A DNA stretch of 64,000 nt from Escherichia coli (GCF_044647545.1 NZ_CP172818.1), one strand, 5' to 3'; positions 37,983 to 40,103 are shown, numbered from the stretch's first letter. Notes: a model not told the origin generated them from the sequence alone. Program-made: numbers and translations.

Positions 37983-38247
37983 GTAAACCTCTTCCTTCAG
38001 GCTTTAAATGAGCAATAACCTTAATGAATGTGACGATACATTCTGGAATGGCAGTATTCTCGGCTATTGGCTGAAGTATACCCATACCCGGAAAGAGTTA
38101 CTCCTTATTTGCCGCGTGGTTAGTCGCTTTACATCGGTAAGGGTAGGGATTTTACAGCACCGTGAAAAATCTCATAATTTTTATGAAATCACTGTACTCA
38201 CTATGGGTAATGATAAATATCAATGATAGATAAAGTTATCTTATCGT

Positions 38248-38261
38248 TTGATTTACATCAA
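38248..38261 (+). promoter_or_regulatory. FNR box (TTGAT-TTAC-ATCAA) in the narK promoter
   Basis: Perfect match to the TTGAT-N4-ATCAA FNR consensus, about 60 bp upstream of the narK ATG. Confidence 0.8.
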
Positions 38262-38320
38262 ATTGCCTTTAGCTACAGACACTAAGGTGGCAGACATCGA
38301 AACGAGTATCAGAGGTGTCT

Positions 38321-39712
38321 ATGAGTCACTCATCCGCCCCCGAAAGGGCTACTGGAGCTGTCATTACAGATTGGCGACCGGAAGATCCTGCGTTCTGGCA
38401 GCAACGCGGTCAACGTATTGCCAGCCGCAACCTGTGGATTTCCGTTCCCTGTCTGCTGCTGGCGTTTTGCGTATGGATGTTGTTCAGCGCTGTTGCGGTG
38501 AACTTACCGAAAGTCGGTTTTAATTTTACGACCGATCAGCTATTTATGTTGACTGCGCTGCCTTCGGTTTCTGGCGCGTTATTACGTGTTCCATACTCCT
38601 TTATGGTTCCTATCTTCGGTGGTCGTCGCTGGACGGCGTTCAGCACCGGTATTCTGATTATTCCTTGCGTCTGGCTGGGTTTTGCCGTGCAGGATACCGC
38701 CACGCCTTATAGCGTCTTCATCATCATCTCTCTGCTGTGCGGCTTTGCTGGCGCGAACTTCGCATCCAGTATGGCAAACATCAGCTTCTTCTTTCCGAAA
38801 CAGAAGCAGGGTGGCGCGCTGGGTCTGAATGGTGGTCTGGGCAACATGGGCGTCAGCGTCATGCAGTTGGTTGCTCCGCTGGTGGTATCACTGTCGATTT
38901 TCGCAGTATTTGGTAGCCAGGGTGTCAAACAGCCGGATGGGACTGAGCTGTATCTGGCGAATGCGTCCTGGGTATGGGTGCCGTTCCTTGCCATCTTCAC
39001 CATTGCGGCGTGGTTTGGCATGAACGATCTTGCTACCTCGAAAGCCTCCATCAAGGAGCAGTTGCCGGTACTCAAACGGGGTCATCTGTGGATTATGAGC
39101 ATGCTGTATCTGGCAACCTTCGGCTCCTTCATCGGCTTCTCCGCGGGCTTTGCGATGCTGTCAAAAACGCAGTTCCCGGATGTTCAGATTCTGCAATACG
39201 CTTTCTTCGGGCCGTTTATTGGTGCGCTGGCGCGTTCTGCAGGTGGTGCATTATCTGACCGTCTGGGCGGAACTCGTGTCACGCTGGTGAACTTTATCCT
39301 GATGGCGATTTTCAGCGGCCTGCTGTTCCTGACCTTACCGACTGACGGACAGGGCGGAAGCTTCATGGCGTTCTTCGCAGTCTTCCTGGCGCTGTTCCTG
39401 ACAGCTGGGCTGGGTAGTGGTTCCACTTTCCAGATGATTTCCGTGATCTTCCGTAAACTGACAATGGATCGCGTGAAAGCAGAAGGGGGTTCTGACGAAC
39501 GTGCGATGCGTGAAGCGGCAACCGACACGGCGGCGGCGCTGGGTTTCATCTCTGCGATTGGCGCGATTGGTGGCTTCTTTATCCCGAAAGCGTTTGGTAG
39601 CTCGCTGGCATTAACGGGTTCGCCAGTCGGCGCAATGAAAGTATTTTTGATTTTCTATATCGCCTGCGTGGTGATTACCTGGGCGGTATATGGTCGGCAT
39701 TCTAAAAAATAA
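38321..39712 (+). CDS. narK: Nitrate/nitrite antiporter (MFS, NNP family)
   Basis: Recognised as NarK; start taken as the second ATG (MSHSSAPERATGA...), 463 aa. Confidence 0.93.
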   Translation: MSHSSAPERATGAVITDWRPEDPAFWQQRGQRIASRNLWISVPCLLLAFCVWMLFSAVAVNLPKVGFNFTTDQLFMLTALPSVSGALLRVPYSFMVPIFGGRRWTAFSTGILIIPCVWLGFAVQDTATPYSVFIIISLLCGFAGANFASSMANISFFFPKQKQGGALGLNGGLGNMGVSVMQLVAPLVVSLSIFAVFGSQGVKQPDGTELYLANASWVWVPFLAIFTIAAWFGMNDLATSKASIKEQLPVLKRGHLWIMSMLYLATFGSFIGFSAGFAMLSKTQFPDVQILQYAFFGPFIGALARSAGGALSDRLGGTRVTLVNFILMAIFSGLLFLTLPTDGQGGSFMAFFAVFLALFLTAGLGSGSTFQMISVIFRKLTMDRVKAEGGSDERAMREAATDTAAALGFISAIGAIGGFFIPKAFGSSLALTGSPVGAMKVFLIFYIACVVITWAVYGRHSKK

Positions 39713-39848
39713 ATCTAATATTTGATTATCCTTTGCGCGGCATGATGTCGCGCTTTTTTTATTCGTCATTTAGTTACAACATACTCATATTATATGGCTT
39801 ATTTCGCCGGATTTCATTAAGAGCCATTAATATGTTACCCATGGGGAA

Positions 39849-39865
39849 TACTCCTTAATACCCAT
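39849..39865 (+). promoter_or_regulatory. Paired NarL heptamers (TACTCCT / TACCCAT) far upstream of narG
   Basis: Two TACYYMT-type heptamers read directly, about 250 bp upstream of the narG ATG. Confidence 0.6.
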
Positions 39866-39998
39866 CTGCATAAAAATCTTAATAGTTTAAATAACTACAG
39901 GTATAAAACATCTTAATTTACAGCGTGTTATGCTGTAACTGCTAATTATCCTAAAGGGGTATCTTAGGAATTTACTTTATTTTTCATCCCCATCACTC

Positions 39999-40012
39999 TT
40001 GATCGTTATCAA
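39999..40012 (+). promoter_or_regulatory. FNR box (TTGAT-CGTT-ATCAA) in the narG promoter
   Basis: Perfect FNR consensus about 100 bp upstream of the narG ATG. Confidence 0.8.
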
Positions 40013-40103
40013 TTCTCACGCTGTTTCAGAGCGTTACCTTGCCCTTAAACATTAGCAATGTCGATTTATCAGAGGGCCGACAGGCTCCCACAGGAGAAAA
40101 CCG

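Follow-up and report, generated by a model that had tools for sequence, protein, structure and literature searches.

The 64-kb stretch of DNA analyzed here (hereafter, the window) carries the narXL-narK-narGHJI locus of Escherichia coli. Its identity is 100% to strain FDAARGOS_497 and ∼98.5% to most other strains, including K-12 derivatives. Gene positions were taken from the annotations of FDAARGOS_497 and MG1655. The region that holds the regulatory sites of this study takes in two intergenic segments, narX-narK (338 bp) and narK-narG (391 bp), together with the narK gene between them. The genes and transcript end that frame the sites are as follows:

37982, minus strand: start codon of narX (annotation)
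38321-39712, plus strand: narK, with its ATG at 38321 (annotation)
39735-39760, plus strand: intrinsic terminator of narK, shared by the NarS small RNA as its 3' end (terminator scan; narS is annotated in MG1655; PMC7038943)
40104 onward, plus strand: narG, with its ATG at 40104 (annotation)

The terminator at 39735-39760 parts the narK and narG transcription units, and in Salmonella the expression of narK/NarS has been found to require both NarL and FNR (PMC7038943). Upstream of each of the two units, the following FNR sites and core promoter elements were located:

38210-38223: second FNR-like site of narK, ATGATAAATATCAA, centered at -79.5, with one mismatch (9/10)
38248-38261: FNR box of narK, TTGATTTACATCAA, a 10/10 match to the consensus TTGATnnnnATCAA, its center taken as -41.5 (class II)
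38283-38288, plus strand: -10 hexamer of narK, TAAGGT, 28 bp downstream of the FNR center
39999-40012: FNR box of narG, TTGATCGTTATCAA, a 10/10 match to TTGATnnnnATCAA, centered at -41.5 (class II)
40035-40040, plus strand: -10 hexamer of narG, TACCTT, 29 bp downstream of the FNR center

Besides the boxes at 38248-38261 and 39999-40012, the 64 kb contain no perfect match to TTGATnnnnATCAA; dinucleotide shuffles gave a mean of 0.11 such matches, and 1 of 100 shuffles reached two. When one mismatch was allowed, nine matches were present in the window versus 2.9 expected, ATGATAAATATCAA among them. Transcription starts were set at the FNR center plus 41.5, following the published K-12 geometry, which gives a probable start for narG at ∼40047, ∼57 nt upstream of its ATG, and for narK at ∼38295-38296, ∼25 nt upstream of its ATG, and both implied starts agree with the annotated gene starts. 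According to a rule quoted in the literature, class II geometry calls for ∼29 bp between the site center and the -10 hexamer. Both promoters pair a consensus box with a spacing to the -10 hexamer that lays the box over the -35 position, and both therefore appear to be of class II, in which FNR would directly contact RNA polymerase. In addition, the -10 element is in each case merely a weak TAnnnT hexamer, and for this reason both promoters are likely to be activator-dependent. Published work on K-12 points the same way, since FNR chromatin immunoprecipitation sequencing (ChIP-seq) peaks were recorded at narGHJI and narK, with a top-scoring FNR site at -41.5 that is of class II, and FNR-dependent expression of both was reported (Myers et al. 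2013, PMC3688515). Thus, the first-pass annotation of this DNA, which had placed perfect FNR boxes at class II positions upstream of narK and narG and had used them in support of the start-site assignments, was borne out on each of these points.

NarL sites were sought with the heptamer consensus TACYYMT, as quoted from the literature. Exact heptamers found without fitting fall at -208, -195, -185, -89, and -262 of narG and at -214, -194, and -90 of narK, and those retained as sites, together with their partners, are listed below:

38079-38085, plus strand: narK NarL heptamer TACCCAT, centered at -214, exact
38099-38105, plus strand: narK NarL heptamer TACTCCT, centered at -194, exact
38195-38209: proximal NarL region of narK, consisting of TACTCAC (plus strand, -98, one mismatch) and TACCCAT (minus strand, 38203-38209, -90)
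39836-39842, plus strand: narG NarL heptamer TACCCAT, centered at -208, exact
39849-39855, plus strand: narG NarL heptamer TACTCCT, centered at -195, exact, 255 bp upstream of the ATG
39859-39865, plus strand: narG NarL heptamer TACCCAT, centered at -185, exact, 245 bp upstream of the ATG
39946-39961: proximal NarL region of narG, consisting of TTATCCT (plus strand, -98), 2 bp, and AGGGGTA (TACCCCT on the minus strand, -89)

Clustered TACYYMT heptamers thus lie upstream of the core promoter at both narG and narK, which marks the two as probable NarL-activated promoters. Because the starts were fixed at the FNR center plus 41.5, the heptamers reproduce the published "-195" and "-89" regions of narG. 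These two regions are the ones protected by phosphorylated NarL (NarL-P) in DNase footprints, the -89 region being of high affinity, and both are needed for induction in addition to FNR and IHF, at a promoter described as having no 7-2-7 sites (PMC4549865). Consistent with that description, the -195 and -185 heptamers form a direct repeat with a 10-bp center spacing and not an inverted 7-2-7, and the sole 7-2-7-like arrangement at narG is the -98/-89 pair (TTATCCT-AA-AGGGGTA), which carries two mismatches. The 7-2-7 arrangement is a preference and not a requirement, so membership of narG among NarL-activated promoters is unaffected. The first-pass annotation had described paired NarL heptamers ∼250 bp upstream of narG; both members are exact, and the distance holds when counted from the ATG, but on the promoter map they belong at -195/-185, and they are a pair only in the sense of direct repeats. 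Its broader statement that the sites match the known control by FNR, NarL, and IHF stands, given their identity with K-12 and the agreement with the published regions, and the account was correct but incomplete, as it left out the -208 heptamer, the -98/-89 region, and the IHF core of narG, as well as the heptamers and the -79.5 FNR-like site of narK.

Whether such short motifs carry meaning can be judged from their density. The heptamer is short and degenerate, and 49 exact TACYYMT matches occur across the window; moreover, the 7-2-7 pattern (≤3 mismatches) shows no window-wide enrichment (29 versus 32.7 expected), and one exact heptamer, at narG -262, was dropped as a site, being inexact in K-12 and unconserved. 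All of this would suit the view that the sites are nonregulatory, the A/T-rich DNA between genes having matched a short degenerate consensus by chance. However, the narK-narG region holds five exact heptamers where the rate across the window predicts 0.30 (Poisson P = 1.6e-5), five being reached by 0.06% of local shuffles, and the narX-narK region holds three versus 0.26 expected (P = 0.002), while the two perfect FNR boxes, for which 0.11 were expected, both sit at promoters. In addition, ChIP and footprint data have been published for the identical K-12 sequence (PMC3688515, PMC4549865), and the comparison across enterobacteria given below also stands against chance, with spacing kept to the base across genera amid unalignable flanks and with the sites missing from the narZ paralogues. 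We therefore consider chance matching exceedingly improbable.

The intervals between the distal and proximal NarL clusters contain two A/T-rich elements that were examined as IHF sites:

38155-38183: conserved A/T-rich block of narK (-141 to -113), with a weak IHF-like core near -122
39918-39930, plus strand: IHF core of narG, TTACAGCGTGTTA (-129 to -117, center -123), preceded by an A/T-rich tract

IHF is required at narG according to the literature (PMC4549865), and the narG core, situated between the two clusters, where action of IHF has been reported, is a good candidate for the site involved. In the window, TTACAGCGTGTTA differs from the IHF consensus WATCARNNNNTTR by two mismatches, and a single-sequence scan (≤1 mismatch) missed it; only the comparative scan of offsets was informative. 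Across 89 enterobacterial narG loci, -129 to -117 was the best-conserved offset for WATCARNNNNTTR, with a mean of 1.31 mismatches versus 5.72 ± 0.86 over all offsets, and ≤1 mismatch was found there in 55 of the 89. The single-sequence scan also returned matches at 39715, 39777, 40024, and 38241, which are probable false positives, the last being simply an FNR half-site. At narK, the IHF-like match at -128 is weak (mean of 2.96 mismatches to WATCARNNNNTTR versus a background of 5.8), and assignment of the -141 to -113 block as IHF-like is tentative; the block also overlaps a sigma-70-like pattern match, TTTACA-16-CATAAT. An IHF site, or IHF dependence, has been ascribed to narK.

The loci used for comparison were obtained with a degenerate NarG N-terminus pattern, which yielded 120 enterobacterial loci that were sorted by upstream gene. 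About 91 to 92 were of the narG type, with a NarK orthologue upstream and a gap of ∼390 bp; 89 of these were used for offset counts, and 52 of the narG-type loci included narX and the full narX-narK region (the narK-type set). Six were of the narZ type, with a NarU-like gene upstream and a short gap. Loci were anchored gaplessly on the proximal FNR box, and the anchored conservation profile was read for upstream positions only. At narG, 89 of the 92 distinct sequences had a perfect box and three shared a single mismatch at one position; at narK, the box was perfect in all 52 loci. TAnnnT followed the FNR center at 29 bp in 89/89 narG loci and at 28 bp in 48/52 narK loci, one less than at narG. 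With the narK hexamer at 28 and not 29 bp from the FNR center, placing the start 7 nt past the hexamer would renumber the FNR site of narK as -40.5.

Conservation of the NarL heptamers was more uneven. At narG, 75 of the 89 loci had an exact -195 heptamer at a constant offset, and 83/89 had it within one mismatch; the -89 heptamer, whose GGTA is invariant in 16 genera, was the second-best heptamer offset; and the -185 heptamer retained its TACC part, with ≤1 mismatch in 51/89. The -208 heptamer was exact at its offset in just 2 of the 89 loci and is therefore Escherichia-specific. At narK, the -214 and -194 heptamers were exact at the same distance from the FNR box in 47/52 and 45/52 loci, respectively, and the -98 heptamer was within one mismatch in 51/52, while the -90 heptamer was unconserved outside Escherichia among the 52 loci. 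A MAFFT alignment of 16 genera returned the same islands of identity amid otherwise unalignable DNA. Serving as a negative control, the six narU-narZ paralogue loci, searched up to 2 kb upstream, gave no FNR match better than two mismatches and zero to three heptamers. The value added by this analysis is comparative, in that the FNR box, -195 heptamer, IHF core, and -10 hexamer are seen to keep base-exact spacing in ∼90 enterobacterial species. The feature itself is already known, and these textbook FNR, NarL, and IHF sites are correct but ordinary. Class II activation by FNR in combination with NarL and IHF is commonly illustrated by narG and narK, whose promoters were reportedly mapped between about 1987 and 1994 by Li and DeMoss (1987/88), Walker and DeMoss (1992/94), and Kolesnikow (1992), with further original maps said to be those of Bonnefoy and DeMoss (1992) and of Li, Kustu, and Stewart (1994).

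Taken together, the two are almost certainly sigma-70 promoters of the classical co-activated kind, serving the respiratory nitrate locus of E. coli. In the scheme outlined here, the sites, their enrichment, their identity with K-12, and their spacing come from the present data, and the literature supplies the binding and the requirement for FNR, NarL, and IHF, including the reported codependence of narG on FNR and NarL. An FNR dimer, active without oxygen, would bind the perfect TTGATnnnnATCAA box ∼41.5 bp upstream of the start, and, the -10 hexamer being poor and an independent -35 hexamer being lacking, FNR at -41.5 would recruit RNA polymerase. NarX would sense nitrate and phosphorylate NarL, and NarL-P would then bind both the proximal cluster (-98/-89) and the distal cluster (-208/-195/-185 at narG and -214/-194 at narK), rendering transcription nitrate dependent. 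At narG, IHF bound near -123 would bend the DNA and draw the distal cluster of NarL in toward the proximal complex of NarL, FNR, and polymerase. The distal cluster keeps a base-exact distance to the FNR box in 75/89 loci, which appears to agree with such a phased loop. The layout of narK is alike, with distal heptamers at -214/-194, the A/T-rich stretch at -141 to -113, proximal heptamers at -98/-90, and FNR at -41.5. For annotation, this means that narK and narG each have a rightly placed promoter of their own, dependent on FNR/NarL, in support of the annotated start codons.

Related promoters offer a useful contrast. nirB, nrfA, fdnG, and napF likewise have an FNR box near -41.5 together with upstream NarL/NarP heptamers and sites for IHF and Fis, but at nirB and nrfA NarL acts at a single 7-2-7 near -70 and mostly counters repression by IHF and Fis. 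At narG and narK, IHF is positive, and there are two clusters of NarL heptamers ∼100 bp apart, of which the distal one consists of direct repeats, unlike in nirB and nrfA.

Two features of the narK promoter leave room for other readings. The first concerns the distal NarL cluster (38079-38105), which might serve mainly the divergent narXL genes through autoregulation. Its heptamers and the narX ATG are only 97 to 123 bp apart, conservation within the narX-narK region peaks in the block from -240 to -190, and the weak nitrate inducibility of narXL expression would also count for such a role. However, in ∼90% of the 52 loci the distance of the cluster from the narK FNR box does not vary by a single base, and the cluster mirrors the layout of narG, with its -195 cluster, element near -123, -98/-89 region, and FNR box at -41.5. 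Both observations argue that the cluster is phased to the narK promoter, and a role mainly in narXL control is quite unlikely in our judgment, although roles at narK and at narXL are mutually compatible.

The second concerns the number of FNR sites, as narK could be activated from -41.5 and -79.5 together, in a tandem arrangement of the FNR/CRP type, instead of from a single class II site. The upstream site, ATGATAAATATCAA, matches at 9 of 10 positions, has its center precisely 38 bp upstream of that of the main box, and is listed in databases. If MG1655 genome versions are offset by 777 bp, the K-12 ChIP peaks would map near window positions 40020 and 38223, the latter lying between the two FNR sites of narK. 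Against this, the -79.5 site was kept (≤1 mismatch) in only 3 of the 52 loci, a T-run taking its place elsewhere, and it is therefore unconserved outside Escherichia; it also abuts the NarL heptamers at -98/-90, so that occupancy may be competitive. Moreover, Myers et al. counted a single FNR site at narK (PMC3688515). Joint activation from both sites is thus possible, if on balance doubtful, and activation from the single class II box at -41.5 is the reading that we prefer.

Relative to K-12, the regulatory elements are unchanged. The sequences and spacing of the sites in the K-12 narGHJI promoter (FNR at -41.5, class II; NarL at -195/-89; IHF near -125) recur in the window, and identity with K-12 narG extends over the FNR box, the -208/-195/-185 and -98/-89 heptamers, the specified positions of the IHF core, the -10 hexamer, and the leader. 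The narG intergenic region nevertheless differs from that of MG1655 by 13 substitutions, of which eight are clustered at -137 to -105 and one lies at -31; the clustered eight comprise one in the A/T tract, two at N positions within the IHF core, and five in the linker that joins this core to the -98 heptamer. The 338-bp narX-narK region differs from K-12 at two positions only (-181 and -108), neither of them within a site. Within the species, the version of narG -147 to -101 found in the window is a rare allele, present in just 125 of 5,426 complete E. coli genomes, whereas the 45-bp block with the three distal narG heptamers was identical in 4,419 of 5,413 genomes and the core from -101 to -1 in 3,507 of 5,417. 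Variation kept outside the sites fits functional constraint on them.

Two further elements of narG were noted in the leader and the promoter spacer. The leader contains the following:

40074-40087, plus strand: hairpin GGGCC-GACA-GGCTC, just 5' of the Shine-Dalgarno sequence

Of 92 loci, 88 have the GAGCC/GGCTC stem, their loops being of 20 different sequences, and the hairpin was predicted in both the minimum free energy (MFE) and centroid folds. The folding energy of the narG leader was unexceptional (z = -0.03), so the hairpin is without thermodynamic support and the case for it comes from conservation. No RNA family was credibly matched when 37900-40200 was scanned against Rfam (best E = 0.031, with a score far short of the gathering cutoff), and the literature searched yielded no function for the hairpin or for the spacer. 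The spacer, TTTCAGAGCGTTA (-23 to -11), has one mismatch to the IHF consensus and is strongly conserved, and GCAATGTCGA, just upstream of the leader hairpin, is invariant. It is conceivable, though improbable, that the hairpin and spacer form an undescribed layer of control, acting on mRNA stability or translation or as a second nucleoid-protein site, and that, separately, the rare allele of the linker between the IHF core and -98 alters both the geometry of the loop and inducibility by nitrate in this lineage.

On the narK side, K-12 carries a 124-bp ERIC-like insertion just past the narK stop codon that the window does not have, and this presence/absence difference falls in the 3' untranslated region of narK (narS).

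The enterobacterial loci were compared after anchoring on the FNR box. Results revealed that the narG -10 hexamer (40035-40040) was placed 29 bp from the FNR centre in all 89 narG-type loci, and the narK -10 hexamer (38283-38288) 28 bp from it in 48 of 52 narK-type loci. A 28-bp spacing has been reported to make the activity of semi-synthetic CRP promoters dependent on an upstream activator. At narG, the segment that separates the -10 hexamer from the FNR box, TTTCAGAGCGTTA (40024-40036; -23 to -11), was conserved in the 89 loci, which is unusual for a promoter spacer. This spacer differs from the IHF consensus by one mismatch, and across the 89 loci the mean was 1.63 mismatches, making it the second-best offset; no assigned function was found for positions -23 to -11.

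Downstream of these elements, the narG leader (40047-40103) was the best-conserved portion of the intergenic region in the 16 genera compared, with the conserved sequence GCAATGTCGATTTATCAGAGAGCC..CAGGCTCC.CACAGGAGA. It includes the following feature:

40074-40087: narG leader hairpin, with a 5-bp GAGCC/GGCTC stem

The stem was present in 88 of the 92 loci, which carried 20 distinct loop sequences, and two of the four loci without the standard stem still pair via wobble. The E. coli stem includes a G.U pair. The folding energy of the leader was unexceptional (z = -0.03), and no description of this hairpin was found in the literature searched. In Cronobacter sakazakii, the sRNA CsrN was described in 2026 as pairing with GCGUUACCGUCCCG in the "narGHJI 5' UTR" (PMC13065745). 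The E. coli homologue of this paired sequence, GCGTTACCTTGCCC (40031-40044), includes the narG -10 hexamer and is located upstream of the narG start implied by an FNR box at -41.5; thus, it would lie outside the E. coli narG transcript, unless an alternative start is used.

Differences from K-12 (MG1655) were observed on the upstream side of narG. Eight substitutions occurred within 33 bp (39910-39942; narG -137 to -105) of a locus otherwise ∼98.5% identical to K-12, and only 125 of the 5426 complete E. coli genomes carried the window's allele. The cluster lies between the narG IHF core and the NarL heptamer at -98 and has the appearance of a short recombinant tract or a hypervariable patch. 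In addition, MG1655 harbors a 124-bp insertion directly 3' of the narK stop codon, which the window lacks; comparison of the two sequences placed it as follows:

39713-39717 (window), about 1850-1975 (MG1655 locus): insertion junction and site

The insert falls within the annotated sRNA gene narS (b4813) and looks like an ERIC/IRU element because its sequence matches the ERIC1R/ERIC2 primer sequences. The K-12 form of the narK 3' region was present in 2457 of 5416 complete E. coli genomes (∼45%), and E. coli strains therefore differ in the length of the NarS precursor, of which there are two versions; the NarS seed region and terminator (39717-39760) are the same with or without the insertion.

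Other pattern matches were also detected. A sigma-70-like pattern, TTTACA-16-CATAAT (10/12; 38151-38178, narK strand), precedes the main narK start by ∼110 bp and falls in the conserved narK block -141 to -113; sigma-70-like matches in the region were not above chance (3 versus 3.2 expected). At 57849-57886, a 7-2-7-like NarL pattern, TACTCACTTCTGGGTA (two mismatches), occurs 8 bp from the FNR-like GTGATCCAAATCAA (one mismatch). According to the mapped FDAARGOS_497 annotation, both lie in the coding region of adhE, in its 5' part, and their proximity is probably due to chance.
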